Source of the DNA: Spirochaetia bacterium
GTDB lineage: Bacteria > Spirochaetota > Spirochaetia > CADAEX01
DNA length: 64,000 nt
Assembly: GCA_031548835.1 (NCBI GenBank)
Contig: JAVBQS010000019.1
Coordinates: forward strand, 2,445 to 66,444
Direction of reading: 5' to 3'
Under the pieces are notes generated by a model. That model was given only the letters and a program-made list of their open reading frames with translations, did not search any database and was not told where the DNA came from. Position numbers and translations under genes: made by a program. Positions 14,234 to 38,312 of this stretch are shown piece by piece. Each line of letters begins with the position of its first letter. The stretch's first letter is position 1.

Positions 14234-14414
14234 AAAATTATGAAAAATATCATGCTGGTGTATAAAAAATAATACACTGGCATGAACAATATTCCAATCC
14301 ACTTTTATTAAAAATAATAAATCCTTATACCGCAAGTAATTATTTAATTAAAAAAACTTTTATAGATGGCACGGTAATTGCATGTTAGTTAGCAAATCTA
14401 TATTGAGGTGATTT

Positions 14415-15038
14415 TTGAATAATTTACTTAGTGTTATTACAACAAAAACTTTTCCCGCAAACATTTTGGAATTAAGAACAGAGTTGTTTAGAAAAAGCAT
14501 TCATATGCTTATTGCTTTAGTTCCAATGATAGCTGCAATTGATAAAGGAATTGCGCTTGCATTGCTTGGCGGCGGAGCAATAATATACACTTATTCAGAA
14601 ATGTTAAGAGCCAGAGGGCTTAGCCTTATATTTATTTCAGGCATTAAGAATTTTGCATTAAGAGAAAAAGATAAAAATAGTTTTGCAGGAGGGCCTGTAA
14701 CACTTGCTCTTGGCGCAATGATTGCTCTTCTTTTTTATCCATCTGATGTGGCAAAAATTGCAATCTATGCTCTTGCTTTTGGCGATGGTTTTGCAAGTCT
14801 TATAGGAAAAACTTTTGGTGTAACTAAAATACCTTTTACAGGGGGAAAAAGCTTTGAAGGAAGTTTTGCATGCTTTTTTGCAATATTGATTTCATCTTTT
14901 AAAATTACATCAAATATTGGAGTATCTTTTACAACAGCTCTTGTTGTTACAGTTGTGGAAGCTTTTCCGCTTGGCGACTATGATAACATTATTATTCCCA
15001 TAGTTGCAGGTTCCACTGCTTTAATAATGATTGGCTAG
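14415..15038 (+). CDS. CTP-dependent polyprenol (dolichol/phytol) kinase-like membrane protein (CdsA superfamily)
   Basis: Probable TTG start after SD 'gaggtga'. Multi-TM protein with 'AFGDGFASLIGKTFG' (GDGxAxxIGxxxG motif of the VTE5/Sec59 kinase family). Confidence 0.45.
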   Translation: MNNLLSVITTKTFPANILELRTELFRKSIHMLIALVPMIAAIDKGIALALLGGGAIIYTYSEMLRARGLSLIFISGIKNFALREKDKNSFAGGPVTLALGAMIALLFYPSDVAKIAIYALAFGDGFASLIGKTFGVTKIPFTGGKSFEGSFACFFAILISSFKITSNIGVSFTTALVVTVVEAFPLGDYDNIIIPIVAGSTALIMIG

Positions 15039-24394: not shown

Positions 24395-25735
24395 TTATCT
24401 TTCTGCCAACGGAATATATTTTTTCCTTGGCGCAACATTTTTATATGCCGGGCGTATGATTCTTCCGCCATTTACAAGCTCTTCTATTCTATGGGCAGAC
24501 CAGCCTGCTATTCTTGCTATTGCAAATATTGGAGTATAAAGCGCTGTAGGAATATTTAGCATTTTATAGACAAAGCCTGAGTAAAAATCAACATTTGCAG
24601 AGCCTCTTTTGTCTGAATGTTTTTCCTGAGATATAATTTGCGGCGCAATTTTTTCAACTTTGGTAAAAAGGTTAAATTCTGCCTCAAGCCCTTTTTCTGC
24701 AGCAAGATCTGAAGCTTTTTCTTTCAATAATATTGCCCTGGGATCTGAAAGTGTATAGATTGCATGGCCGTATCCATATATAAGGCCTGCTTTGTCAAAA
24801 ACTTCTTTATTAAGAATTCTGCGGAGGTAATTTCCTATCTCATCTTCATCATCCCAATCTTTTATATTTTCCATCATATTTTCCATCATATTGAGAGCTT
24901 TCTTGTTTGCTCCTCCATGCCTGGGGCCTTTCATGGAGCACAATGCTGCTGCAATTGCAGCATAGGTGTCTGTATGGCTTGATGTTACCACATGATTTGT
25001 AAAAGTAGAGTTATTTCCTCCGCCATGTTCTGCGTGAAGAACAAGCGCAAGGTCAAGAACCTGTGCTTCCAGTTTTGTATATTTACTGTCGCTGCGTATA
25101 AGGTGTAAAAGATTTTCTGCTGTGCCTATTCCAGATTGCGGTTTATGGATATAAAGGCTGTTGCCTTCATGATAATGGGATTTTGCCTGGTAGCCGTAGG
25201 CTGCCATTGTCGGGAATCTTGCTATAAGCTCTATACATTGTCTTAATACATTTTCAATACTTATATCATCTGCATTTTTATCATAAGAATATGAAACAAG
25301 CACGCTTCTTGCAAGCTTGTTCATTATATCGCGGCTTGGAGCCCTCATTATCATATCTTCTGCAAAACCGTCAGGCAGCTCCCTGTAGGAATCAAGAAGG
25401 CTGTTAAACTCATCAAGTTCGTTTTTTGAAGGCAGCTCGCCAAAAAGAAGAAAATAGGTAGTTTCTTCAAAGCCGTGCCTGTCTTCAGCTATCATTCCTT
25501 TTACAAGTTCAGTTATATTTACGCCTCTGTAAAGAAGCCTTCCCTCATCAGGCTGCATTTCTCCTTCATCAAAGACATAGCCGTGGACATCTCCTATTTC
25601 TGTAAGCCCTACAAGCACTCCTGACTCATCGCTGTTTCTAAGCCCTCTTTTTACATTATATCTGGTATATAAACTGGGATCTATTTTATTACTCAAAATC
25701 TTGTCTTTCATTTTTTCAATAAAATTTGCAGCCAT
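24395..25735 (-). CDS. gltA: Citrate synthase
   Basis: All the catalytic motifs are present: 'GPRHGGAN', 'GYGHAIYTLSDPRA', 'NVDFYSG', 'ARIAGWSAHRIEE'. 446 aa. Confidence 0.9.
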   Translation of the reverse strand: MAANFIEKMKDKILSNKIDPSLYTRYNVKRGLRNSDESGVLVGLTEIGDVHGYVFDEGEMQPDEGRLLYRGVNITELVKGMIAEDRHGFEETTYFLLFGELPSKNELDEFNSLLDSYRELPDGFAEDMIMRAPSRDIMNKLARSVLVSYSYDKNADDISIENVLRQCIELIARFPTMAAYGYQAKSHYHEGNSLYIHKPQSGIGTAENLLHLIRSDSKYTKLEAQVLDLALVLHAEHGGGNNSTFTNHVVTSSHTDTYAAIAAALCSMKGPRHGGANKKALNMMENMMENIKDWDDEDEIGNYLRRILNKEVFDKAGLIYGYGHAIYTLSDPRAILLKEKASDLAAEKGLEAEFNLFTKVEKIAPQIISQEKHSDKRGSANVDFYSGFVYKMLNIPTALYTPIFAIARIAGWSAHRIEELVNGGRIIRPAYKNVAPRKKYIPLAER

Positions 25736-25743
25736 TTTTTCCC

Positions 25744-25758
25744 CCTGATGATGTCAGG
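25744..25758. promoter_or_regulatory. Palindrome CCTGA-TGATG-TCAGG immediately upstream of the gltA start codon
   Basis: A perfect 5-bp inverted repeat with a 5-nt spacer, 9 nt upstream of the gltA ATG (minus strand). A near-identical element occurs at 28233-28255. Confidence 0.5.
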
Positions 25759-26025
25759 CAGTAATGATATAGATAATAGCATTCCTGCTTACATTTTAAT
25801 TTATTTTAATATAAAATAAAAACAATGGAAATAGCGTAATTTATTACTGTTAAATTTGAAATTTAAGTTAAATAATTGTCCAGTCAGGAAAGTTTTAGCC
25901 GTAATGTTTAGCTTATAAATAATCATAAAATAATATTTTTATTTTTTAATAACTTTATATATAAAATAAAAATAATTATATAAAATTATACAATTTAATA
26001 ACTTTAAGTTATTAAAGAAATGAAA

Positions 26026-26065
26026 ATAAATGAGTTGTCTTTATAGATAAATGAGTTGACTTTAT
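26026..26065. promoter_or_regulatory. Two 19-bp direct repeats (ATAAATGAGTTG[T/A]CTTTAT) with 21-bp periodicity in the gltA / CS-like divergent intergenic region
   Basis: 18 of 19 positions are identical. The repeats lie about 120 bp upstream of the 26187 gene. Their two-helical-turn spacing is typical of transcription-factor tandem sites. Confidence 0.45.
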
Positions 26066-26186
26066 GCAAGGAATAATTTAGGGTTGTATAAAAAATATTG
26101 ATTTTTACCTGTTGTTATCTGCATTTGTAGAGTCCTTTCAGGTAGAAACATTATATTAAATGTAACTTAATATAGGAGGAGAGAGA

Positions 26187-27083
26187 ATGGATCGGAAACC
26201 ATTGATCCAAAGGAAAACTGCAATCTGTTACAAAACAGAAGAAAAAACAGTTTTACGCGGTTTTAATGTAAGTGATCTTGCTGAAGCAGGCTACACTTTC
26301 ATAGATGCTCTGTATGTTCTTTTTCAGGGAAGAATTCCTGCTGAAAATGAGAAAAAAATGCTTGATTATGAGGTAGCAGAGTTTCTTGAACACTCAATGT
26401 CACCTTCAGCTGTATCTGCTATAGCTGTTATTAACGGACATCCAATGCTTCCAGCTGCTGTTGCATCATCAATCATGACTTTTGGTGGAGCTCACGGCCC
26501 AGGTGCAGCACACGGATATATGATGAAAAAATACCTTGACAGAGCTGCTGACACAGGAAAAAGCATCAAAGAAGTTGCTATTGAATGTGTAAACGAGTAT
26601 ATGGATGCAGGTCTTGCTGTAATGGGTATGGGACAGCCGCAGCACCTTGACGGTGACCCAAGAGCAGAACCCACACACCTCAAACAGGAAGAACTTGGAG
26701 TTACAGGTGTATATCTCCAGTTCCAGAGAGCTCTTGAAGATAAATTCTATGCAAGAAGAAAAGAAGAAGGCAGAGCTTATGTTGCTGTAAACATGGTTGG
26801 CGCTGGTAATACTGCTCTTTCTGACATGGGATTTGCTCCAAATGCAGGATGGGTTATCGGTTGTGTAACAAGAGGTTACAGCTGTGCTTGTCACGCTCTC
26901 TATACACTTAAAAAAGGAAGAGCATGGGCAGCATCAAGAAGCGAGCCAATGGTTCAGATGCTTGACCTTGCAATGATTAAATATGTAGGGCCGGAAGACA
27001 GGGAAGTTCCTCCTATGTCAGAAAGACAGGCATATGCAAAAAAACAGTTAGAATCAGGAGAATATAAGAAATGGGCGCTGTAA
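26187..27083 (+). CDS. Citrate-synthase-family protein, subunit 1 of a putative heteromeric enzyme (retains the His264-equivalent and the DPRA motif)
   Basis: 'GGAHGPGAAHG' aligns with 'GPRHGGAN', followed about 35 aa later by 'GMGQPQHLDGDPRAE' (the GxGHxxY His is replaced by Gln). The C-terminal 'GWVIGCVTRGYSCACHALY' matches the 'ARxxGWxAH' motif. The N-terminus matches the CS region 'LRGFNVSDLAEAGYTFIDALYVLFQGRIP'. Strong SD 'aggagg'. Confidence 0.7.
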   Translation: MDRKPLIQRKTAICYKTEEKTVLRGFNVSDLAEAGYTFIDALYVLFQGRIPAENEKKMLDYEVAEFLEHSMSPSAVSAIAVINGHPMLPAAVASSIMTFGGAHGPGAAHGYMMKKYLDRAADTGKSIKEVAIECVNEYMDAGLAVMGMGQPQHLDGDPRAEPTHLKQEELGVTGVYLQFQRALEDKFYARRKEEGRAYVAVNMVGAGNTALSDMGFAPNAGWVIGCVTRGYSCACHALYTLKKGRAWAASRSEPMVQMLDLAMIKYVGPEDREVPPMSERQAYAKKQLESGEYKKWAL

Positions 27084-28144
27084 AATATTCAGATGACAGA
27101 ATTGCACAAATGAAATTTGCAAAAAGGCCAACTCTCGGTAACCTTGCAGATCCAAGATTAAAATATGACTATACAAACAGAGAGATTGGAACACTTCCTC
27201 CAGATAACAGGGAAAGTTTTAAATGGGTTTCTGAAGTAGCATACAAAAATATCCACAGAATCGTAGCTAGAGGTTATGATACAACAGAAATTGTAGAAGC
27301 TGGTTACGGAGTATGCGAAGTACTCTTTATAGACTATCAGTCAAGAATTCCTCTTGTTGAAGAGAAAGAAGTTCTTGATTACTGCATGGTTTTAGGACTT
27401 GAAGACGGCCTTTCAAACCCAGCTCTTCTTGCAAGACTTATTGCAAGAGGTAAATCTTACGTAACACAGGCTTGCGGCGGTTCAGTGCTTGCTTTCGGAC
27501 ATGCATATGCTTCTTACGATGCAACAGGAAAAATGATTGTTAAATATGCTTCAAAAGTAGAAGAAGGAATGAGCCTTACAGATGCTGCAAAGCTTTGTAT
27601 AAAAGAATGCCAGAAAGAAGACCATTTTGGTATTTCTACTCTTTATGCTAAAGATGCTGCGCCAAAAAAACTTCTTGACTTTGCAGAGAAAAAACTCTCA
27701 GGCGTAAAGAAACTCAGATATGTAAACTTCATGAAAGAACTCGACAAACAGGCTAAAGCAGCGCTTGGTGCTAATTATGGCGTAGACATGATTGGCGCTC
27801 TTTCAGCAGCAATGCTTGAACTCGAATTCTCAAGTGATGGAGCATGGTGTTTAATGGCTGTTACAAGATCATTTGCAGCAGGCGCTCATGCAATTGAAGA
27901 AATGGAAAGAGAGACACTTGATGTTCTTGGCCAGACACTTACTCCAAAAGATTGGTACGACGGTCCGGCAGACAAACCAGTTCCTTCACAGAAAGAAAGA
28001 TCAGGCTTCAAAGGCGGCCAGGCTCAGACAGCTGCTGAATGGAGAGCTCTCTGGAAAAAGAATGAAGCACTCAAAGGTTCTGGATATTCAATCCCATTTG
28101 TTGTTGAAGATCCAAGAAAAGCTAGTGTAACAAAAAAGAAATAA
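27071..28144 (+). CDS. Citrate-synthase-family protein, subunit 2 (paralog; retains the His305- and Asp362-equivalents)
   Basis: 'AFGHAYASYDATG' aligns with 'GYGHAIYTLSDPRA', 'GANYGVDMIG' with 'ANVDFYSG', and 'AVTRSFAAGAHAIEEME' with 'ARIAGWSAHRIEE'. The N-terminus is paralogous to ORF 26187 ('RGYDTTEIVEAGYGVCEVLFIDYQSRIP'). It overlaps the upstream gene by 13 nt. Confidence 0.7.
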   Translation: MGAVKYSDDRIAQMKFAKRPTLGNLADPRLKYDYTNREIGTLPPDNRESFKWVSEVAYKNIHRIVARGYDTTEIVEAGYGVCEVLFIDYQSRIPLVEEKEVLDYCMVLGLEDGLSNPALLARLIARGKSYVTQACGGSVLAFGHAYASYDATGKMIVKYASKVEEGMSLTDAAKLCIKECQKEDHFGISTLYAKDAAPKKLLDFAEKKLSGVKKLRYVNFMKELDKQAKAALGANYGVDMIGALSAAMLELEFSSDGAWCLMAVTRSFAAGAHAIEEMERETLDVLGQTLTPKDWYDGPADKPVPSQKERSGFKGGQAQTAAEWRALWKKNEALKGSGYSIPFVVEDPRKASVTKKK

Positions 28145-28159
28145 TTTCTTTTTACAATA

Positions 28160-28191
28160 TCTGCAGAGTGTTATCATAGACATTCTGCAGA
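28160..28191. promoter_or_regulatory. Two TCTGCAGA palindromes spaced 24 bp centre-to-centre
   Basis: Seen in the 147-bp gap between the second CS-like gene and the aldehyde dehydrogenase gene. Confidence 0.3.
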
Positions 28192-28232
28192 ATAGTTTTA
28201 ATAAAATAAAATTTTTTTTTTACAGAAAAAAT

Positions 28233-28255
28233 ACCCTGATGATGAGTCAGGGTAT
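28233..28255. promoter_or_regulatory. Palindrome TACCCTGA-tgatgag-TCAGGGTA (8-bp stem), second copy of the gltA-upstream element
   Basis: It shares 'CCCTGATGATG..TCAGG' with the site at 25744-25758 and lies 37 nt upstream of the ALDH start. Confidence 0.5.
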
Positions 28256-28291
28256 AACTATGTATAACTAATTTATTAGGAGAAGGTAGAG

Positions 28292-29698
28292 ATGTCAGAT
28301 AACATTAAGGAAATGTATGCTAAAGCAAGAAAAGCTTTTGAAGTTGTTGAATTCTGGGATCAGGAAAGAGTTAACGAAGTAGTTGCTGCTGTTGCTTGGC
28401 AGTGGATGAAAAAAGAAGTTGGAGAAGAACTTGCAAAACTTGCAGCTGAAGGCTCTGGAATGGGTAAATATGAAGATAAATGCCAGAAAGCAAACAAGGT
28501 TAGAGGAATAATGTGGGATATGAAAGATGCTAAAACAGCAGGCATCATTAAAGAAGATAAAGAAAAAGGTATTACAACATATGCAAAACCAATGGGTGTT
28601 GTTGCAAACGTTGTTCCTACAACAAACCCAACAATAACAGCATGTTTTATCGGTCTTTCACTTCTTAAGACAAGAAATGCAATGATCTGTTCACCGCACC
28701 CAAGATCAAAAGATTCTACATATAGAACAATTGAATGGGGAAGAGCAGCTCTTAAAGCTGTTGGCGCTCCGGAAGATCTTTTCCAGTGTATTCAAGATCC
28801 TACAAATGAAAAAACAGTTGAACTTATGTCAACATGCGATTATGCAGTTGCAACAGGCGGAAAAGCTCTTATTAAAGTAGTACATTCAGCAGGAACACCT
28901 TCTGTAACAGTAGGCGCTGGTAACGTAAGAGCAATTATTGATCCATCTGCAGATCTTGCTAATGCAGCTTTCTGCGTAGCTAAATCAAAGACATTTGACA
29001 ATGCTACATCATGTTCTTCAGAAAATGCTGTTTCTATCCATGTGTCAATATATGACAAAATGATGGAAGAGCTCAGAAAAGTTGGCGGATACATGCTTAA
29101 CACAGAAGACAGGGAAAAACTCAGAAAAGCTATGTGGCCTGACGGACACACACTTAACAGAGACATTGTTGCAAAACCTGTACAGCATATTGCAAAACTT
29201 GCTGGCATTAGCGTTCCAGAAGGAACAAAATTCATCATGGTAAAAGGTGAAAAAATCGGACCAGAAGATATGTTCTCTAACGAAAAACTTTCACTCGTTC
29301 TTACTGTATGGACATGGGAAGATTTTGACACAGAGATCAAAACACTTAAGAAAAACCTTCTTTTCTCTGGTATTGGCCATTCATGTGCTCTTCACTCAAC
29401 AAAACCGGAACAGTGGCACAAACTTGCTGCTTTTATTCCTACAGGAAGAGTTAACATAAACATGCCTAACACAACTGTAAACAGCGGAAGCTGGTTTGCT
29501 GGCCATGAATTTACAACAACAATTGGTTGCGGTACATGGGCAGGCAACAGCCACAGCGATAACATCAACTACAGACATTTTATGAATACAACAAGACTTG
29601 CCACACCTCTTAAAGAATATGTTCCTACAGACGAAGAAGTTTGGGGAAAATATCTTGATAAGGCTAAAAAAGCAACAGCAAATCTTAAATTAAACTAA
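28292..29698 (+). CDS. CoA-acylating aldehyde dehydrogenase (EutE/PduP/AdhE-N-terminal family)
   Basis: 'GVVANVVPTTNPT' and the catalytic-Cys region 'FDNATSCSSENAV' correspond to 'FDNGVICASEQSV' of AdhE-type enzymes. 468 aa. SD 'aggagaagg'. Confidence 0.85.
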   Translation: MSDNIKEMYAKARKAFEVVEFWDQERVNEVVAAVAWQWMKKEVGEELAKLAAEGSGMGKYEDKCQKANKVRGIMWDMKDAKTAGIIKEDKEKGITTYAKPMGVVANVVPTTNPTITACFIGLSLLKTRNAMICSPHPRSKDSTYRTIEWGRAALKAVGAPEDLFQCIQDPTNEKTVELMSTCDYAVATGGKALIKVVHSAGTPSVTVGAGNVRAIIDPSADLANAAFCVAKSKTFDNATSCSSENAVSIHVSIYDKMMEELRKVGGYMLNTEDREKLRKAMWPDGHTLNRDIVAKPVQHIAKLAGISVPEGTKFIMVKGEKIGPEDMFSNEKLSLVLTVWTWEDFDTEIKTLKKNLLFSGIGHSCALHSTKPEQWHKLAAFIPTGRVNINMPNTTVNSGSWFAGHEFTTTIGCGTWAGNSHSDNINYRHFMNTTRLATPLKEYVPTDEEVWGKYLDKAKKATANLKLN

Positions 29699-29717
29699 TA
29701 TTATATTGGTTTAAACA

Positions 29718-29747
29718 GGGGCTCCTTAACCGGAGCCCTTTTTTTTC
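29718..29747 (+). terminator. Rho-independent terminator after the aldehyde dehydrogenase gene
   Basis: Stem gggctcc/ggagccc with a 6-nt loop, followed by T9. Confidence 0.75.
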
Positions 29748-29917
29748 TTTTTAAAAAACTGATGGGCTGCGAAGCGTACTGTATAGATAACATATAACAA
29801 ATATAAATTTGATAATTAAATACAGTATACACTTCGTTATCCAGCACAATTTTGGTAGATAAATTTATAGACTGTTAAAGTAAAATAGTTTAGTTTAAAT
29901 ATATAAAGAGGAAAAAA

Positions 29918-30619
29918 ATGATAAAAGCTATTGTATTTGATTTTGTTCAGACACTTGGCAGCGCTGCAGATGGCTATAAAGATGCTGAAAAAAAATCTCA
30001 GAAAAAACTATATGAAAAACTTGGCATCAATGACTGGGATAAATATATGGATCTATACAGGGAAGAGAGAAAACAGCATTTTTTAAGATCTGATTTTTCA
30101 AGAAAAAATGTCTGGATAAAACTTTGTGATTATTTTAATGTTCCTGTGGATAATAAATTTCTTGATCAGCTTGAAGACCAGTATTGGGAAATTGTAAAAA
30201 ACAGCATGAAACTTTTTCCTGAAGCGCTTGATGTAATTAAGAAATTAAAGCCCAGATATAAGCTTGGCATGGTTTCCAATTCCCAGAAAGACGGCAGCAC
30301 AAAAGCTCTTGAAAATGATGAATATAAAAAGCTTGAAAAACTGTTTGATGCAATTGTTATATCAGGAGAAGGAAATATTCCTGCCAAACCAGACCCTGCG
30401 CCGTTTAAAATAGTTTTGGAAAAACTTGGTGTTAAGTCGGAAGAAGCTATTTTTGTTGGAGATGATTTTAGAGTAGATATTGAAGGCAGCAAAAATGCAG
30501 GAATGACACCTGTATGGCTTAAGCATTACTCTGTTGAACGCAACTGGCCTGAAGCATCATTCAAAGTTATAGAAATAACCAATCTTGAAGATGTAGTTGA
30601 TATAGAGAAAAAGCTTTAG
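29918..30619 (+). CDS. HAD-superfamily hydrolase (phosphatase-like)
   Basis: N-terminal 'IVFDFVQTL' (motif I). Motif IV 'GDDFRVDIEGSKNAGM'. 233 aa. Confidence 0.8.
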   Translation: MIKAIVFDFVQTLGSAADGYKDAEKKSQKKLYEKLGINDWDKYMDLYREERKQHFLRSDFSRKNVWIKLCDYFNVPVDNKFLDQLEDQYWEIVKNSMKLFPEALDVIKKLKPRYKLGMVSNSQKDGSTKALENDEYKKLEKLFDAIVISGEGNIPAKPDPAPFKIVLEKLGVKSEEAIFVGDDFRVDIEGSKNAGMTPVWLKHYSVERNWPEASFKVIEITNLEDVVDIEKKL

Positions 30620-30663: not shown

Positions 30664-31569
30664 ATGAATCTCTATCATTTAAAGACTTTTTATTATACTG
30701 CAAAATGTAAAAGCCTTACAAAGGCAGCAGATATGCTGTGTATTACTCAACCTGCTGTTACCAAGCAGATTAAACAGCTCCAGAGCTACTATGACCTTAA
30801 ATTCCTTGATATTATAGGGAAAAAAGTTATTCTTACTGATGCAGGTGAACATCTCTATAGCATTGCAGATAAAATTTTTGATATGGAAAGCCAGGCAGAG
30901 GAAAGCATCAAGGATTTCCAGCATTTTAACAAAGGCAAGATTTCAATATTGTCATGCGAAAGTTTTGGAGCTTACTATCTTCCCTATATTATTAAATATT
31001 ATAGCAAAGCAAACCATGATATAAATGTTTCCATGATTATTGGTCATAACGAAAGTATTATTGAAAATACAGCAGAGCTTAATAATGATATAGGATTTAT
31101 ATCAAAACCTATTCAGAATCCAAAAATATCAGTGCAGGAAATTCTTGAAGATAATATTGTGTGTATTGTTCCGCGCAACCATCAGCTTACAAGAAAAGAT
31201 CATCTTGAAGTAAAAGATATTGAAGGATACAACCTTATTGTACATGAAAAAGGTTCTGTAACCAGAAAAATAACAGAAACTTTTATAAGAAAAAATAGAA
31301 TTAATGTAAATATGCATTATGAAATTTCAAATAATGAAACTATAAAAAGGCTTGTTGAACAGGGCCTTGGAGTCGCATTTATATCAAACAATATGGTAAA
31401 TGAAGAAGTAAAAACAGGGAGATTAATTGCCCTGCCTGTTGAAGATAAAAATTTTAAAAGAAAATATTATATGATCCACCACAGCGATAAATATTTTTCA
31501 AAACCTCTTAAAGATTTTGTAGACCTTGTGCACCAGTGGTCTAATATTTATCCTACGCCAATGTTTTAA
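30664..31569 (+). CDS. LysR-family transcriptional regulator
   Basis: N-terminal wHTH 'LKTFYYTAKCKSLTKAADMLCITQPAVTKQIKQLQ'. About 300 aa with a C-terminal substrate-binding domain. Confidence 0.9.
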   Translation: MNLYHLKTFYYTAKCKSLTKAADMLCITQPAVTKQIKQLQSYYDLKFLDIIGKKVILTDAGEHLYSIADKIFDMESQAEESIKDFQHFNKGKISILSCESFGAYYLPYIIKYYSKANHDINVSMIIGHNESIIENTAELNNDIGFISKPIQNPKISVQEILEDNIVCIVPRNHQLTRKDHLEVKDIEGYNLIVHEKGSVTRKITETFIRKNRINVNMHYEISNNETIKRLVEQGLGVAFISNNMVNEEVKTGRLIALPVEDKNFKRKYYMIHHSDKYFSKPLKDFVDLVHQWSNIYPTPMF

Positions 31570-32057
31570 AGAAACAGTATTTTAAATTCTTTTTCAAAAT
31601 TAGGTGTAAAAATATTTTTGCCCAGCCTATCTTTAATTTCTTTTATTGAAAAAAATCTGCCGTCTGTTACTTCATTGTTATCTATTTTAAATGGGCCATT
31701 ATAATTTGTTTTATATACAAAAGAAAGCTCTGTTTCTGTCTCATCTTTGTTAAGCTGTGTAAATAAAAATTCAGCATTTTTTAGATCAATTCCCAATTCT
31801 TCTTTTGCTTCTCTTACAAGCGCTGTATAAATATCTTCACCTGCTGATACATGGCCGCCTACAGCTGTATCCCACATATCAGGATATGTATCTTTGGTTG
31901 CTGCTCTTTTCTGGAGAAAAATTTCTCCTCTTGAGTTAAGTATTAATAAGTGGACAACCATCTGAATCATCGAAGGGTCTTTGTGGCAAATACTGCGCGG
32001 AGCGCTTCCTTCAGGAATTCCATCGGAGTTACATAACTGAATCATCTCTTCTTTCAT
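31566..32057 (-). CDS. Nudix hydrolase
   Basis: Nudix box 'GGHVSAGEDIYTALVREAKEELGI'. 163 aa. Confidence 0.85.
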   Translation of the reverse strand: MKEEMIQLCNSDGIPEGSAPRSICHKDPSMIQMVVHLLILNSRGEIFLQKRAATKDTYPDMWDTAVGGHVSAGEDIYTALVREAKEELGIDLKNAEFLFTQLNKDETETELSFVYKTNYNGPFKIDNNEVTDGRFFSIKEIKDRLGKNIFTPNFEKEFKILFL

Positions 32058-32408: not shown

Positions 32409-34169
32409 ATGGGGTATTTCTTAAAATACAGAATTAATATTAAAATTTTTATATCTTTTATCTTTATAATTCTTGTCACAACCGTTACTTCTCTGTTAAT
32501 CAACTACTTGTTATTTAAGGATTCTGTTAAAAAATCAAATATAATAAGACTGCAGGACAGCACCACTGCTTACTATAATGAAATCAAATTTACCGAAGAT
32601 ATATGCCTTAAAGCAGTAAGCACGTTATCCAAAGATAATACTCTTTCTGATTTAATACTGTTAAAAAATACAGATACTCTTGGTAAAATACTTGGCAATT
32701 ATTACAAAATGGGATTGTTTGATATTGTTGAAATTGAAAATCCTGACGGAACTGTTTTTATAAGAGCTCACGATCCTGATCAAAGCGGAGATCTTAAAGC
32801 AGAACAAAATATTGTAAAAGAAGGACTTGCAGGAAAAATAGCTGTCAGTTATGAAAGCGGTAAATCAGGCATTGCGATAAGAGCAGTCGCCCCTCTTGAG
32901 AAAGACGGCAAAATAATAGGACTTCTGATGCTTGGAAAACTTTTCTCGGAAGAACTTGTGGCAAATATGAAAAAGCTTACAGGGCTTGATAATGGAATAT
33001 ACTGGAAAGATAAAAAAATAATTTCTACCTATGATGGAATTCAAACTATTTATAATGATAAAATGGAAAAACTTTTGGAAAATGGCTCTGTCATATTTGA
33101 TGAAGTAATTGGCAAAGATAGATATTATTTTATGATCAAGGCTTTATATACAGATGATCAGCGCTACTGGGGAGCAGTAACTTTATTTATTAAAGAAAAA
33201 GATAATGCAGGCTATCTTTCATATATAAAAAGCATTCTGTTTTTTATGGTAATGATAGGTTTTTTTCTTTCTTTTTTAGCTTATCTTCTTCTTGCAAATG
33301 ATATAAACAATTCTTTAAGTAAAATTATTGATAGAATCAATAATTTTAACATAGATGACAGTTCTCAAATAATAGATGTAAAAGCAAATGATGAATTTAA
33401 AATAATTGCAGACAGTATAAATAATCTTTCAAAAAAAATATATAAATATAACCAGCAAATAGTAAAGCTTCAGGATGACATGATAAGGTCTGCAAAACTG
33501 GCAGTTGTCGGTCAGCTTTCGGCAGGACTTGCCCATGAAATAAGAAATCCGTTGAGCTCTATAAAAATGATGTCGCAGATAATAAAGGCCAGATATTTGC
33601 ATAATAAGGAAGGCCTTGAAGAAATTAATACAGTACTTGAAGAAATTGAAAGAATTGATAATTTAATTAAGGATTTGCTGGAATTTTCAAAACCAGGGCC
33701 TATGTATTTTGCGCAGCATGATATTAATAAATTAATTCTAAATACTTTAAATAAATACAGATATAATATTGAACATCAAAAAATAACAGTTGAATATAAT
33801 TTTGAAAAAAAATTGCCTCTAATATCTGTGGATAGTGAAAAAATACAAATCTGTTTTATAAACTTTATTGTTAATGCAATTCAGGCAATGGCTGAAGGCG
33901 GAAAACTTACAATAAATACAATGCTGCAAAATGATAAAATAGTTATAGAATTTAAAAATAACGGGCCTTTAATTTCTGAAAAAGATATAGATAAAATATT
34001 TGAACCATTTTTTACTACAAAAAAAGAAGGCACAGGATTGGGCCTTGCTCTTACAAAATTAATAATTGAAAGACATTATGGAAAAATATTTTCTTCAAGC
34101 AATGAAAAAGAAACAGTTTTCAGCATAATCCTTCCTTTGGTAAATAATAATATTATTCCAATTGTATAA
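32409..34169 (+). CDS. Sensor histidine kinase with periplasmic (Cache-like) sensor domain
   Basis: Two TM helices flank a roughly 250-aa extracytoplasmic domain. H-box 'HEIRNPLSSI'. HATPase motifs 'GTGLGLALTK'. Confidence 0.85.
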   Translation: MGYFLKYRINIKIFISFIFIILVTTVTSLLINYLLFKDSVKKSNIIRLQDSTTAYYNEIKFTEDICLKAVSTLSKDNTLSDLILLKNTDTLGKILGNYYKMGLFDIVEIENPDGTVFIRAHDPDQSGDLKAEQNIVKEGLAGKIAVSYESGKSGIAIRAVAPLEKDGKIIGLLMLGKLFSEELVANMKKLTGLDNGIYWKDKKIISTYDGIQTIYNDKMEKLLENGSVIFDEVIGKDRYYFMIKALYTDDQRYWGAVTLFIKEKDNAGYLSYIKSILFFMVMIGFFLSFLAYLLLANDINNSLSKIIDRINNFNIDDSSQIIDVKANDEFKIIADSINNLSKKIYKYNQQIVKLQDDMIRSAKLAVVGQLSAGLAHEIRNPLSSIKMMSQIIKARYLHNKEGLEEINTVLEEIERIDNLIKDLLEFSKPGPMYFAQHDINKLILNTLNKYRYNIEHQKITVEYNFEKKLPLISVDSEKIQICFINFIVNAIQAMAEGGKLTINTMLQNDKIVIEFKNNGPLISEKDIDKIFEPFFTTKKEGTGLGLALTKLIIERHYGKIFSSSNEKETVFSIILPLVNNNIIPIV

Positions 34170-34541: not shown

Positions 34542-35570
34542 ATGAACAAATATGTGAATGCTGTGCAATCTGAACAGATAAAAAACTATGGATTTAAAAA
34601 AATTATAGGAAATTCAACCGCAATACAGGAGGTTTTTAAATCTATAGGAAGGCTTGTTAATAATGATGTTATTGTTCATATAGCAGGAGAAAGCGGGACA
34701 GGAAAAGAGTTGGTTGCACATGCGCTGCACTTTAATGGCAAGAGAAAAAATGAACCTTTTATTGCTGTTAACTGTTCCGGCCTTATAGAATCTATTTTGG
34801 ACAATGAACTTTTCGGCCATGAACCGCAGGCTTTTACAGGCGCTGTATCGCTTAAAATAGGAAAATTTGAAGCAGCAGGAGAAGGAACAATATTTCTTGA
34901 TGAAATTGGAGATATGCCTCTTACAATACAAACAAAATTCCTGAGAATTCTTCAGGAAAATGAATTTCACAGAATGGGTGGACTTAAAAATATTAAATTA
35001 AAGGCAAGAGTTATAACTGCAACAAACAGAAATCTTTTTGAAGAAGTACAGGCAGGCCGCTTTCGGGAAGATCTTTATTACAGAATAAATGTTGCAAAAA
35101 TAATTTTGCCGCCCCTTCGGGAAAGAAAAGAAGATATTCCTGAACTTACAGATTTTTTTGTTCAAAAAATTTCAAGAAAAATTAACAAAAGTTTTATATC
35201 TGTGCCTGAGCAAATAAAAAATGAATTTATAAATTATGATTGGCCTGGAAATGTAAGAGAGCTTGAAAATCTAATTACAAGTATGTGTATAAATGCAAAA
35301 GGAGCTGTTCTTGCATTAGACGATATGCCGGCTACTGTTTTAAAATCATCAAGAGAAGATTGTCTTTCCAAAGTTATAGATAAATTTTATATGGAAAATA
35401 AACATTCAAAAAATCTGCTTCCTCTGCTTTATGAAAAACTTGAAAAAATAATGATAGATAAAATTGCACATGAGCAGAACAATAATAAATCTGCCATGGC
35501 AGAAATACTTGGGATAAGCAGGGTTACGCTTACAAAAAAAATGAATCAGGATGAAAAAAGCCATAATTAA
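34542..35570 (+). CDS. Sigma-54 interaction (AAA+) domain plus Fis-type HTH (C-terminal part of an interrupted NtrC-type activator)
   Basis: Walker A 'GESGTGKE'. The GAFTGA-like 'GHEPQAFTGA'. 'VRELEN'. C-terminal HTH 'SAMAEILGISRVTLTKKM'. It is in the same frame as the receiver ORF, separated by TGA plus 4 codons. Confidence 0.85.
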   Translation: MNKYVNAVQSEQIKNYGFKKIIGNSTAIQEVFKSIGRLVNNDVIVHIAGESGTGKELVAHALHFNGKRKNEPFIAVNCSGLIESILDNELFGHEPQAFTGAVSLKIGKFEAAGEGTIFLDEIGDMPLTIQTKFLRILQENEFHRMGGLKNIKLKARVITATNRNLFEEVQAGRFREDLYYRINVAKIILPPLRERKEDIPELTDFFVQKISRKINKSFISVPEQIKNEFINYDWPGNVRELENLITSMCINAKGAVLALDDMPATVLKSSREDCLSKVIDKFYMENKHSKNLLPLLYEKLEKIMIDKIAHEQNNNKSAMAEILGISRVTLTKKMNQDEKSHN

Positions 35571-35761
35571 AAAATGCTTTTGTAAAAAAGCTTATCAATA
35601 GTGATAAATTGCTTTACATATTTTTTATCTTTTGGAAAAAACTGCCCATTTGTTTGGACAGTTTAATTAAAATTTATTTTAATTATTTATAATATAACTA
35701 TTTATTTCTAAATATCATTTTCAAAGATATTATACAACTTGGCATATTTTATGCATATATA

Positions 35762-36382
35762 ATGGCAGATAGTAAAATGTTTAAGCATTTATTCAAAAAA
35801 AGAGTAGGGCTGGAAAATAAAATTATTGAAGAGATTGATATAGTTCTCTCACTCATTGAAACTATGGGCAAAACAGCAACTGAGCCAAATTCTTTTATTA
35901 TTGCAAATAATATACTTGAACTTGAAACAGTTTTAGATAAGCAGGAACAAGAATTTATAGAACAGATCAACAAGCAAAACCATCTGCCTGATTGCTGGGA
36001 GGAGCTATTTAAAATAAGTAATAGTTTAAAACAACTGTTTAAACAGCTTTCTATGGCTTTTAATAAAATTCAGATATTTAAAGATAATGAATCTTATTTT
36101 TCATTCTATGAGCATGAAAAAAGATTTCTTTTTAATATTAAAAATTTTATTTATGAATATGTTAAAAACCGCAAATATGCATATCAGCTTGTGGTAAATA
36201 ATCAGCATGAACTTAAAGATTTTATGAAAATATATTATACAAAACTTAATGCTGCATTTGGCGGCAGCCCAGAGCATTCTGATATAAAAATAAAAATGCT
36301 GGAGATTTTTCAGCAAATAAATAAAATAAACGAAGAGGTGCAGGAAACAGTAACTAAAATATATGTTAGTTCAGGTGTTTGA
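35762..36382 (+). CDS. Hypothetical all-helical protein (possibly a PhoU/DUF47-like accessory protein of the downstream Na/Pi transporter)
   Basis: 206 aa, predicted helical, no diagnostic motif. Placement upstream of a Na/Pi cotransporter is the only basis for the PhoU-like suggestion. Confidence 0.4.
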   Translation: MADSKMFKHLFKKRVGLENKIIEEIDIVLSLIETMGKTATEPNSFIIANNILELETVLDKQEQEFIEQINKQNHLPDCWEELFKISNSLKQLFKQLSMAFNKIQIFKDNESYFSFYEHEKRFLFNIKNFIYEYVKNRKYAYQLVVNNQHELKDFMKIYYTKLNAAFGGSPEHSDIKIKMLEIFQQINKINEEVQETVTKIYVSSGV

Positions 36383-36641: not shown

Positions 36642-38312
36642 ATGAGTGTCTGGAATGTGTTTACACTGATAGGAGGGCTTGCTGTTTTTCTCTATGGAAT
36701 GATGGTAATGAACAGAAACCTCACATCAATAGCAGGTGAGAAAATGAAATCCATAATGCTCACACTGACTAAGAGCAGGCCAAGAGGTTATATTACTGGC
36801 CTTGGTATTACAATGATTAATCAGTCATCGTCAGCAACAACAGTACTTGAAGCTGCGCTTGTCGGTGCCGGATTAATGACTTTTCACCAGAGTGTTGCTG
36901 TTACTTTGGGTGCTGAGCTTGGTTCAACTTTCCTGGCACACATTGTAGCTTTTCCATCAATAACCAAATTTGCAGCTCTTATAATTGCCGGCGGTTTTTT
37001 CGCTTCTATTATGCTTAAAAAACAGAAAGCTATTAATGCAGCTCTTGCTATTTTTGGTTTTGGTCTTTTATTTATGGGAATGGACATGATGTCTGAATCT
37101 CTTAAACCATTAAGAACATATCAGCCTTTCCTGGATCTTATGATAAAAGTTGAAACTCCTATCCTTGGTATACTTTTGGGCCTTGTTTTTACAATGGTAG
37201 TTCAGTCATCTGGCGCAACAAGTGGCCTTACCATAGCTATGGCAATGGCAGGAACAATAAGTCTTGAACAGGCTGTTCCAATTAACCTTGGCGCTGCAGT
37301 AGGAACATGTATTACCGCAATTCTAGGAAGCCTTGCATTAAACTGGGAAGCTAAAAGATCTGCCTATATCCATGTAATGTTCCAGGTTATAGGTACTATT
37401 TGGGTTTATATACTTTTAATGATACGTATGCCAAACGGAGAAAGAGTTTTTATCTGGCTTGTAAAATGGGTTACAGCAACTGTTTTCAGAACAGATAATC
37501 TTGGAAGAGAAATTGCAACAGGTTTTACACTTATGCCTGTAATTAACCATATACTTTTATTTGCTGTTCCAAAATTTCTTGATACAGTTGTTGCTATTTT
37601 TGAGAAAATATTCCCGCCGAAAGAGAGCGAAAAGCCTTTCAGTGTAAAATATCTGCAGGAGCAGCTTATTGACGGAAGTGTTGAAATAGCTCTTGAAATG
37701 GCTAAAAAAGAAATTCTTATTGATGCAGACCTTGTAAAAAGCATGTTTGAAAAGGTTGATCTGGCATTTAAACATAAGGATATGAAATTAATAAATCAGA
37801 TTTCAGAAACAGACTCAAAAGTCGATCTTCTTCATAAAACCATAATTCTATTTCTTGCAAGAATATCGCGCAAAGAACTTGGCCAGGATGAATCCAAGAG
37901 AAGTATGAACTATCTTTATATAGAGAATGAACTTGAATCTATTGGAGATGTTATTGATAAAAACCTTATGGTAATGGCTAAAAAGATGATAAATCTTGGA
38001 CTTAATTTTTCAGAACAGGGCGGCAAAGAACTTACCGAACTTCATGGAAAAGTAATGGAAAATATTAATAGAATGGTTAAAGCTCTTGCAGAAGAAAATG
38101 CTGAGCTTGCAAAAGAAATAAAAGAAGTATATGCAGATGTTAATGAGACAAAATATCAGCTTTCACATATTGAAAGGCTCCATAAAGGCCTTAAAGTATC
38201 AATTGATACATCATCTGTGCATCTTGATGTAATAAACTATTATGCAAGAATAAATGAACATGTTGCTTATATTGCAGACAGGATAATCTGGCTTACAAAG
38301 AAGCATGTTTAA
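36642..38312 (+). CDS. Na+/phosphate cotransporter (NptA/Na_Pi_cotrans family) with C-terminal PhoU-like domain
   Basis: 'GGLAVFLYGMMVMNRNL' and a repeated transporter half. The C-terminal roughly 200 aa are helical and PhoU-like. 556 aa. Confidence 0.85.
   Translation: MSVWNVFTLIGGLAVFLYGMMVMNRNLTSIAGEKMKSIMLTLTKSRPRGYITGLGITMINQSSSATTVLEAALVGAGLMTFHQSVAVTLGAELGSTFLAHIVAFPSITKFAALIIAGGFFASIMLKKQKAINAALAIFGFGLLFMGMDMMSESLKPLRTYQPFLDLMIKVETPILGILLGLVFTMVVQSSGATSGLTIAMAMAGTISLEQAVPINLGAAVGTCITAILGSLALNWEAKRSAYIHVMFQVIGTIWVYILLMIRMPNGERVFIWLVKWVTATVFRTDNLGREIATGFTLMPVINHILLFAVPKFLDTVVAIFEKIFPPKESEKPFSVKYLQEQLIDGSVEIALEMAKKEILIDADLVKSMFEKVDLAFKHKDMKLINQISETDSKVDLLHKTIILFLARISRKELGQDESKRSMNYLYIENELESIGDVIDKNLMVMAKKMINLGLNFSEQGGKELTELHGKVMENINRMVKALAEENAELAKEIKEVYADVNETKYQLSHIERLHKGLKVSIDTSSVHLDVINYYARINEHVAYIADRIIWLTKKHV

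Follow-up and report, generated by a model that had tools for sequence, protein, structure and literature searches.

A 64,000-nt stretch of a Spirochaetia bacterium genome (contig JAVBQS010000019.1 of assembly GCA_031548835.1; the window, to which all positions refer) carries a cassette in which two shortened, paralogous citrate-synthase-like (CSL) proteins—CSL1 and CSL2, encoded by open reading frames (ORFs) 1 and 2—precede a coenzyme A (CoA)-acylating aldehyde dehydrogenase (ALDH). Comparison with related loci indicates that this cassette is probably part of phosphonate catabolism, with a CoA thioester as its substrate. With a roughly even chance of being right, active-site sequence and gene context point to CSL1/CSL2 as a hydrolase of the carbon–phosphorus (C–P) bond, built on the citrate synthase (CS) fold, that would convert phosphonoacetyl-CoA to acetyl-CoA and inorganic phosphate (Pi). 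It is about equally plausible that the CSL proteins form a new class of C–P hydrolase, within a thioester-conserving route for 2-aminoethylphosphonate (AEP), as that they do not.

The CS fold of both proteins, proposed in a preliminary description made from the DNA letters alone, is borne out by profile, structure-database, and Foldseek evidence. Both are indeed shortened: at 298 and 357 residues they fall short of the full-length CS architecture of ~370–450 residues, which includes the N-terminal part of the large domain. They are paralogous to each other (BLASTP, 25% identity across 293 residues, E 3e-28; hhalign of the two families, probability 100, E 7e-54). Pfam PF00285 (Citrate_synt) matches CSL1 at 45.4 bits, against a gathering score of 27 and over profile positions 166–352 only, and CSL2 at 16.7 bits, below that score; all NCBIfam citrate synthase models give at most 34 bits for either protein, against cutoffs of at least 330. 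The top PDB sequence match of both is 6hxp, the citryl-CoA lyase of H. thermophilus (E 1.7e-18 for CSL1, 8.7e-6 for CSL2), and their best NCBIfam models are citryl-CoA lyase PRK06224 subfamilies, under cutoff in each case (122.3 vs. 212 bits for CSL1; 68.4 vs. 193 bits for CSL2).

Foldseek searches with AlphaFold2 (AF2) models of moderate confidence (pLDDT 74 for CSL1, 69 for CSL2) again return 6hxp first (E 4e-8 and 6e-7; target-relative TM-score 0.68 and 0.73), and then rank the modules of citryl-CoA lyase (CCL) type in ATP-citrate lyase (ACLY) above citrate synthases for both models. CSL1 and CSL2 belong to the CCL branch of the CS fold, so that "CCL-like" describes them more precisely than "CS-like." Judged by their sequences, they are members of neither citrate synthase nor citryl-CoA lyase, as the catalytic Asp is replaced and curated cutoffs are not reached. 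The pair is also distinct from the housekeeping gltA transcribed divergently beside CSL1, whose product matches NF010635, an NCBIfam citrate synthase model, at 712 bits (cutoff 426). No citryl-CoA synthetase (CcsAB) or ACLY fusion occurs among the recurrent neighbor clusters of the 84 paired-gene and 52 single-gene loci analyzed below, and ADP-forming acetate-CoA ligase appears among neighbors in two single matches only. The match lists hold no natural CSL1–CSL2 fusion; the sole fusion seen joins CSL1 to a cytidylyltransferase domain.

Residue equivalences (Table 1) were read from an 85-sequence alignment anchored by intermediate relatives (P0245, P0256, P0265, P0272, and P0276), which came from a CSL1-profile search of 1.84 billion representative proteins and bridge CSL1 to ordinary CCL-like proteins. 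Pairwise registers around the motifs were ambiguous and settled once these intermediates were added. Global hhalign of the CSL1 and CSL2 families against gltA gave meaningless end-to-end alignments and was set aside, as was local hhalign against gltA, with low-probability, partly contradictory registers around the NVD motif.

Table 1. Residues at CS active-site positions (pig CS numbering)
Position	gltA	Ordinary CCL-like	Single-gene CSL	CSL1	CSL2
His238	H	H	H	H	D
His274	H	mixed (H 9/25)	H	H	Y
His320	H	H	mostly H	Q	V/I
Arg329	R	R	R	R	A
Asn373	N	N	N	N	D
Asp375	D	D	A/S/L/P	V/I	L/I
Arg401	R	R (15/25)	R	R	R

CSL1 retains H69, H103, R159, and R229 as the equivalents of His238, His274, Arg329, and Arg401, with Gln150 at His320 and Val204 at Asp375. 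The CS triad His274/His320/Asp375, looked for within one subunit, reads His/Gln/Val in CSL1 and Tyr/Val-Ile/Ile-Leu in CSL2; the gltA of the window has all three. The catalytic Asp (Asp375 of CS, Asp1026 of human ACLY) is Asp in 21 of the 25 ordinary CCL-like representatives and is replaced in CSL1, CSL2, and the single-gene CSL proteins alike. In CSL2, the residue two positions ahead of Asp375, at Asn373, is an invariant Asp, and Arg401 is kept. A CSL1-type and a CSL2-type protein (P0241 and P0254) share a near-identical middle segment, which includes GTAG(I/K)YHDFQIEIQN and is found in no other examined pair; it could reflect gene conversion between the paralogues in one lineage.

These residues bear directly on the function first suggested for the pair, namely a heterodimeric CS/CCL-type enzyme of C–C chemistry with a composite active site assembled from complementary residues, the ALDH feeding or draining its acyl-CoA. 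The split that this reading requires is not what the alignment gives: CSL1 keeps most of the substrate-binding set and CSL2 nearly none. The CSL2 motif taken for the His320 type (His305-type in the preliminary description) is AFGHAY, which aligns with the His274 motif (GPxHGG) and has Tyr at the His. Its VD, matched earlier to the catalytic Asp of NVDFYSG, places the Asp at Asn373, although one very-low-probability hhalign against gltA sets it on Asp375. CS triad residues come from one subunit, and by that structural precedent His274 of one chain with the Asp of the other would not make one site. Single-gene relatives, presumably homodimers, also lack Asp375 in the same gene context; function would therefore be independent of an Asp375 supplied by CSL2.

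The fold itself, the conserved translational coupling, the invariant Asp of CSL2 near Asp375, and the gltA next door in Spirochaetia all fit a C–C enzyme. However, only one lineage has gltA beside the pair (18 loci, every one from the Spirochaete group), the neighbors include neither citryl-CoA synthetase nor oxo-acid-related genes, and the genes that do recur there are phosphonate genes, pointing away from condensation or lyase chemistry with oxaloacetate, glyoxylate, or pyruvate and toward C–P catabolism. We consider a C–C enzyme of this kind very improbable. The heterodimer as such is a reasonable suggestion that stands, as the overlap of the two ORFs and their strict co-occurrence are both conserved.

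The cassette recurs widely in other genomes. CSL1 relatives of at least 70% identity are present in 242 species-level genomes, and the best 80 loci—all from metagenome-assembled genomes (MAGs)—span Spirochaetia, Desulfobacterales, Syntrophales, Opitutales, Planctomycetes, Anaerolineales, Paracoccaceae, and Gammaproteobacteria. The closest relatives are Spirochaetia from rumen, horse feces, and termite gut (80–93% identity); the closest named ones are Spirochaetia MAGs annotated as "citrate/2-methylcitrate synthase." We examined 84 related loci for the cassette by tblastn, 62 of them with at least 6 kb of downstream sequence, and the order CSL1–CSL2–ALDH held in 59 of these 62, a recurrence far beyond chance. 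The translational coupling noted in the window is similarly widespread: the same 13-nt overlap is kept in 48 of 61 cross-phylum pairs, and the other values look like artifacts of start-codon calling. Against orthologues from other phyla, CSL1 has a median identity of 72%, ALDH of 57%, CSL2 of 49%, and the HAD-superfamily hydrolase encoded downstream (HAD) of 40%, by which measure CSL1 is the most constrained gene of the cassette. The cassette region (26001–30000) has a GC content of 0.37–0.40, compared with 0.29–0.34 in the 6–8 kb on either side; the cassette itself stands at 0.40 and its flanks at 0.31–0.34. Combined with cross-phylum protein identities of at least 70%, this difference is suggestive of a horizontally spread module.

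Gene neighborhoods outside the Spirochaetes supply the link to phosphonates. At least one phosphonate gene lies above its NCBIfam cutoff in 27 of 36 well-covered non-Spirochaete loci. Neighbor scores exceed the cutoffs for PhnW (484 vs. 296 bits), PbfA (717 vs. 525), PhnA (528 vs. 408), HpnZ_proposed (358 vs. 328), and the AEP ABC permease PhnU2 (795 vs. 593). PhnC and PhnE also lie above their equivalog cutoffs, and PhnD, at 234 bits, falls above the TIGR01098 subfamily cutoff (112) and below the PhnD equivalog cutoff (261). Further neighbors include PiT-type Pi transporters, an MFS protein of the organophosphate:Pi-antiporter type, and a "phosphonate utilization associated" EamA protein. PhnW and PbfA each yield phosphonoacetaldehyde. 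Because neither PhnX, PhnZ, nor C–P lyase is recurrent among the neighbors in these loci, most clusters have no other C–P-cleaving enzyme; PhnA is in the operon in ~12 loci and missing from most.

The third gene is a CoA-acylating ALDH with its catalytic Cys intact, as previously proposed. Its NCBIfam scores are highest for SauS (NF047625 equivalog, 482.6 bits against a cutoff of 600), followed by AdhE (388) and EutE-type models (340), making it a sister group of SauS and not a member. Its top structure is C. kluyveri SucD (8cei; E 1.3e-94), aligned end to end over residues 4–452. The catalytic Cys242 and His364 described for SucD (PMC10249356), and the neighboring Ser243, have equivalents in the CSSE and GHS motifs of the cassette enzyme, invariant among 62 orthologues. 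Unlike SucD, however, the cassette enzyme has Val at the position of CkSucD Lys70, with basic residues on both sides, and its gene partners differ from those of SauS and SucD. These two enzymes, with their anionic aldehyde or acyl-CoA substrates, are its closest known counterparts, and the ALDH belongs to the acylating clade acting on such compounds. Sulfoacetaldehyde, the SauS substrate, is isosteric with phosphonoacetaldehyde.

This kinship also admits an anionic C2/C3 aldehyde other than phosphonoacetaldehyde, for instance malonate semialdehyde or sulfoacetaldehyde, in which case CSL would make acetyl-CoA from malonyl-CoA by loss of CO2, or from sulfoacetyl-CoA by loss of the sulfo group. 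The best ALDH matches being SauS and SucD, a MatB-like malonyl-CoA synthetase match near the cassette, the lack of phosphonate genes in the window, and a malonyl-CoA decarboxylase gene after ALDH in three loci (L114, L117, and L119) are all compatible with such a substrate. Yet the neighbors above curated cutoffs are phosphonate-specific (PhnW, PbfA, PhnA, PhnCDE, and PhnU2), no Xsc, Tpa, TauABC, or isethionate genes occur among the recurrent neighbor clusters, and a malonyl-CoA decarboxylase beside CSL argues against CSL having that activity. A different substrate of this kind is, in our estimate, distinctly improbable.

A metagenome scan recovered 52 loci with single-gene CSL relatives, many of which are phosphonate clusters. 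Their gene orders include "MFS – PhnW – PbfA – PbfA – CSL – ALDH," "PbfA – CSL – ALDH," "HpnZ – CSL – ALDH," and "CSL – HpnZ – PhnA – ALDH." A second architecture replaces the acylating enzyme and reads "CoAT-A – CoAT-B – CSL – ALDH(non-acylating)": its CoA-transferase (CoAT) subunits match PF01144 at 103 and 90 bits and have the invariant Glu of the xESG motif, and its non-acylating ALDH is PhnY-like, with ELGGK and GQSC motifs. L037, L048, and L050 also have CoA-transferase genes 5' of their CSL1 and CSL2 genes, and L048 and L053 have AMP-forming ligases. Common to all architectures, it appears, is a CSL protein together with a source of phosphonoacetyl-CoA, whether an acylating ALDH working from the aldehyde or a CoA-transferase or ligase working from phosphonoacetate.

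Some neighborhoods depart from these patterns. In L144 (5285–7942) and L146 (4066–6829), LysR, CoA-transferase A and B, and a single-gene CSL form a bare module with no other phosphonate genes nearby; it may be a self-contained cycle of "acid + acetyl-CoA" cleavage. In L114 (10615–12060), L117, and L119, the malonyl-CoA decarboxylase (PF05292, 344 bits) directly follows the acylating ALDH of "PhnW-PbfA-PbfA-CSL-ALDH" clusters; malonyl-CoA is isosteric with phosphonoacetyl-CoA. In L089 (8001–10408, a Tara Oceans contig), L090, and L091, a PF01467 cytidylyl/adenylyl-transferase is fused N-terminally to CSL1, which keeps the 13-nt overlap with CSL2, and there is no ALDH. Neighbors of the L089 type are an HD phosphohydrolase, an NTP_transferase, a CDP-alcohol phosphatidyltransferase, a second cytidylyltransferase, an asparagine synthase, and a VTC-domain protein. 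That cluster looks less like a catabolic one than like a biosynthetic one whose product is a lipid head-group or a surface polymer.

In the mechanism we propose, homology and context suggest that ALDH would convert phosphonoacetaldehyde from PhnW or PbfA, with CoA and NAD(P)+, to phosphonoacetyl-CoA; context and active-site logic suggest that CSL1/CSL2 would then cleave the C–P bond of this compound with water to give acetyl-CoA and Pi. The net reaction would be phosphonoacetaldehyde + CoA + NAD(P)+ + H2O → acetyl-CoA + NAD(P)H + Pi. The leaving group would be the acetyl-CoA enolate, stabilized by the His274 equivalent as in citryl-CoA lyase, and the site for oxaloacetate, which retains the equivalents of His238, Arg329, and Arg401, would take up the phosphonate. 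In CS structures Asp375 lies against the acetyl methyl carbon. In phosphonoacetyl-CoA this carbon bears PO3, and replacing Asp375 by a small or hydrophobic residue would give room and avoid repulsion, which provides a rationale for the clade-wide replacement of this Asp. CSL1 would be catalytic and CSL2 a degenerate partner completing the dimer, with one working site per heterodimer. Where a CoA-transferase is present, phosphonoacetate and acetyl-CoA would give phosphonoacetyl-CoA and acetate, and then acetyl-CoA and Pi, in a citrate-lyase-like cycle. The residue pattern is consistent with C–P hydrolysis by CSL: the phosphonate-associated clade lacks Asp375, and CSL1 and the single-gene proteins keep His238, His274, Arg329, and Arg401.

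If CSL instead were a thioesterase, it would turn phosphonoacetyl-CoA into phosphonoacetate, to be hydrolyzed by PhnA encoded in the locus or elsewhere in the genome. Citrate synthases do hydrolyze citryl-CoA within their cycle, and the ~12 operons with PhnA would accommodate such a sequence. However, most loci have no PhnA, the thioester made by the acylating ALDH would be wasted where PhnY would suffice directly, and a CoA-transferase or ligase beside CSL would be making the very thioester that CSL hydrolyzes. On account of this last, futile pairing we rejected CSL as a mere hydrolase of the thioester, an option we find scarcely credible.

The downstream HAD gene offers a different candidate for the bond-breaking step. 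HAD could be the actual C–P hydrolase, acting on phosphonoacetyl-CoA or phosphonoacetate through its Asp in PhnX-like fashion, with the CSL pair handling, delivering, or sequestering the CoA ester or reacting jointly. The Asp+2 general acid is typically missing from HADs that do not act on phosphomonoesters, such as PhnX and the dehalogenases, and motif I here (VFDFVQTL in the window, FDF[GV]QTL in the family) has the Asp nucleophile without Asp+2. The nearest structure is the dehalogenase-like PH0459; the gene accompanies CSL1/CSL2 in 51 of the 62 loci with sufficient sequence 3' of the pair; and CSL1 might depend on a partner, since its equivalent of His320, retained in single-gene CSL, is gone. 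On the other side, HAD is missing from the other 11 of the 62 and from all single-gene loci, which still have PhnW/PbfA, CSL, and ALDH. No other cassette member is as poorly conserved as HAD (40% median cross-phylum identity), and its promotion would leave no role for CSL1, the most conserved protein. No PhnX or PhnX-like model stands among the best 25 of its 38 NCBIfam matches and no Lys is conserved in the cap region across 39 orthologues, on which grounds its identification as PhnX was rejected. HAD as the C–P hydrolase is unlikely in our view, and HAD may take part in the hydrolytic step of the heterodimeric form.

Several observations count against C–P cleavage by CSL. To our knowledge, phosphonoacetyl-CoA is not a documented metabolite; we found it in the literature only as a hypothetical, unobserved product in a biosynthesis preprint. 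PhnA, an established C–P hydrolase, would be redundant in its ~12 operons if CSL cleaves the bond, and its presence there is unexplained unless it scavenges free phosphonoacetate. In 51 of 62 loci the pair comes with HAD, whose nucleophilic Asp without Asp+2 makes it a possible C–P hydrolase in its own right. Loss of Asp375 leaves the enolate with no assigned proton donor, and the heterodimeric CSL1 also lacks the His320 that single-gene CSL mostly keeps. The AF2 models are only moderately confident. Three loci carry malonyl-CoA decarboxylase after ALDH, some single-gene relatives (L144–L147) occur in contexts without phosphonate genes, and the CSL pair of L089 sits in a biosynthesis-like cluster without ALDH. 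Finally, tblastn of the window for PhnW, PbfA, PhnA, PhnC/D/E, HpnZ, and PiT found nothing within 64 kb, and the phosphonate assignment for this organism rests on orthology (69–93% identity) and a nearby Na/Pi cotransporter.

C–P hydrolysis by CSL would combine a known fold with a known pathway family, the predicted reaction and intermediate being new. Citryl-CoA lyase (6hxp) and the ACLY CCL module share with CSL a shortened CS fold of ~260–300 residues, presumed acyl-CoA binding, and, in the proposed reaction, an acetyl-CoA enolate leaving group. CSL1 and CSL2 differ in scoring far under the NCBIfam cutoffs, in the replacement of the catalytic Asp in both subunits, in forming an obligate paralogue pair and not a homo-oligomer, in having no citryl-CoA synthetase, and in a proposed target bond that is C–P and not C–C. 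The PhnY/PhnA route follows the order proposed here—phosphonoacetaldehyde oxidation, then C–P cleavage beside the new carbonyl—and uses the same PhnW, PbfA, and transporters. In the cassette, by contrast, the dehydrogenase is CoA-acylating, the cleavage enzyme would have the CS fold instead of the alkaline-phosphatase fold, and the product would be acetyl-CoA and not acetate, so that the thioester energy is kept.

The HAD phosphonatase PhnX consumes the same intermediate and also cleaves the C–P bond with help from a beta-carbonyl; its cap-domain Lys forms a Schiff base on the aldehyde. The cassette HAD shares its Asp nucleophile and missing Asp+2 but has neither a PhnX-model match nor a conserved cap Lys, and PhnX is not recurrent in the loci. 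Citrate lyase (CitF+CitE) and malonate decarboxylase (MdcA+MdcD/E) offer a parallel for "CoA-transferase A/B + CSL," which suggests the same acyl exchange followed by cleavage that regenerates the acetyl thioester. The differences are that free CoA takes the place of the prosthetic group on an acyl carrier protein, that the fold is that of CS and not of CitE or carboxyltransferases, and that the group removed would be phosphate.

The literature searched gave no account of a CS-like or CCL protein, acylating ALDH, CoA-transferase, or CoA ester in phosphonate degradation, in keeping with the earlier remark that no described family with this arrangement was recognized. Text searches of two recent papers on the genomic context of AEP catabolism (PMC10590968, PMC12366243) likewise gave no CS-like protein, acylating ALDH, or CoA ester. 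If the proposal is correct, CSL would join PhnX, PhnA, and phosphonopyruvate hydrolase as a fourth C–P hydrolase assisted by a carbonyl, and none of the other three works on a CoA thioester; only a handful of C–P-cleaving enzyme types are known. It would come in two forms, one homomeric and the other a heterodimer of catalytic subunit and pseudo-subunit, and would exemplify the enolate-stabilizing machinery of an old enzyme reused for another bond, with the catalytic subunit paired to a degenerate paralogue.

Much organic phosphorus in oceans, sediments, and guts is present as phosphonates, a major pool that includes AEP, which was first discovered in rumen ciliates. A thioester-conserving AEP route would be previously unrecognized and used mainly by anaerobes, and would be confined, among the 80 genomes examined, to uncultured bacteria. 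It would explain how the pathway is completed in many PhnW/PbfA clusters that have no PhnX and mostly no PhnA, and would keep the carbon as acetyl-CoA, with relevance to the energy yield of fermenters and syntrophs. Hundreds of "citrate synthase" labels in databases would need correction.

The layout of the cassette and its surroundings in the window is given in Table 2.

Table 2. Features of the cassette region, in window positions
Feature	Position	Strand	Evidence or remark
Canonical citrate synthase gltA, 446 aa, divergent	24395..25735	-	outside conserved module
AGGAGG Shine-Dalgarno of CSL1	26174..26179	+	sequence reading; 7 nt 5' of ATG 26187
CSL1 (ORF1), citryl-CoA-lyase-fold, 298 aa, proposed catalytic subunit	26187..27083	+	ORF, profile, structure, and alignment evidence
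Translational-coupling junction	27056..27083	+	AGGAG 27056-27060; CSL2 ATG 27071; CSL1 TAA 27081-27083
CSL2 (ORF2), divergent paralogue, 357 aa, proposed non-catalytic/auxiliary partner	27071..28144	+	
13-bp perfect-stem hairpin, weak T tract, in 147-nt CSL2-ALDH spacer	28160..28191	+	
CoA-acylating aldehyde dehydrogenase, SucD/SauS clade, 468 aa	28292..29698	+	profiles, PDB match
Intrinsic-terminator-like hairpin (9 bp, 6 GC; 29717-29740) and T run, 3' end of three-gene unit	29717..29750	+	
HAD-superfamily hydrolase, dehalogenase-like, frequent fourth cassette member	29918..30619	+	profiles, motif, structure match
LysR-family regulator	30664..31569	+	profile matches; in 27/84 related loci
NUDIX hydrolase, context	31566..32057	-	recurs in closest Spirochaetia loci
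Na+/Pi cotransporter with PhoU domains	36642..38312	+	sole phosphate-related gene near cassette in window

Read from the sequence, the CSL2 AGGAG stands 10 nt 5' of its ATG and within CSL1, which overlaps CSL2 by 13 nt. CSL2 has an N-terminal extension of ~45 residues and a C-terminal tail. The hairpin in the spacer behind it could be an element of mRNA processing or stability. Because a terminator-like hairpin follows ALDH, CSL1, CSL2, and ALDH look like one transcription unit. The LysR-family protein probably regulates the cassette.

In the rumen and gut Spirochaetia loci L015–L023, the next gene after LysR encodes a protein of the CysQ/inositol-monophosphatase family, and NUDIX hydrolases recur nearby, in L032 and L033 as in the window. 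More speculatively, dismantling CoA esters would call for just these two activities, a NUDIX hydrolase together with a 3',5'-bisphosphate nucleotidase.

Regulators of the sigma-54 type also lie close to the cassette. The window encodes an AtoS-like histidine kinase (32409–34169) and a sigma-54 activator without receiver domain (34542–35570), and a kinase and sigma-54 regulator pair of the same sequence clusters flanks the cassette in the Desulfobacterales loci L030, L032, and L033. A sigma-54 promoter was considered for CSL1 because of this nearby, recurrent pair, and no match was found within 25736–26186. A sigma-54-promoter-like motif, TGGCATATTTTATGCA (35740–35755), stands directly 5' of a 206-aa ORF (35762–36382), after which comes the Na/Pi cotransporter gene. 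Farther away, the perfect sigma-54 promoter consensus TGGCACGGTAATTGCA occurs at 14367–14382, 33 nt 5' of an ORF at 14415–15038.

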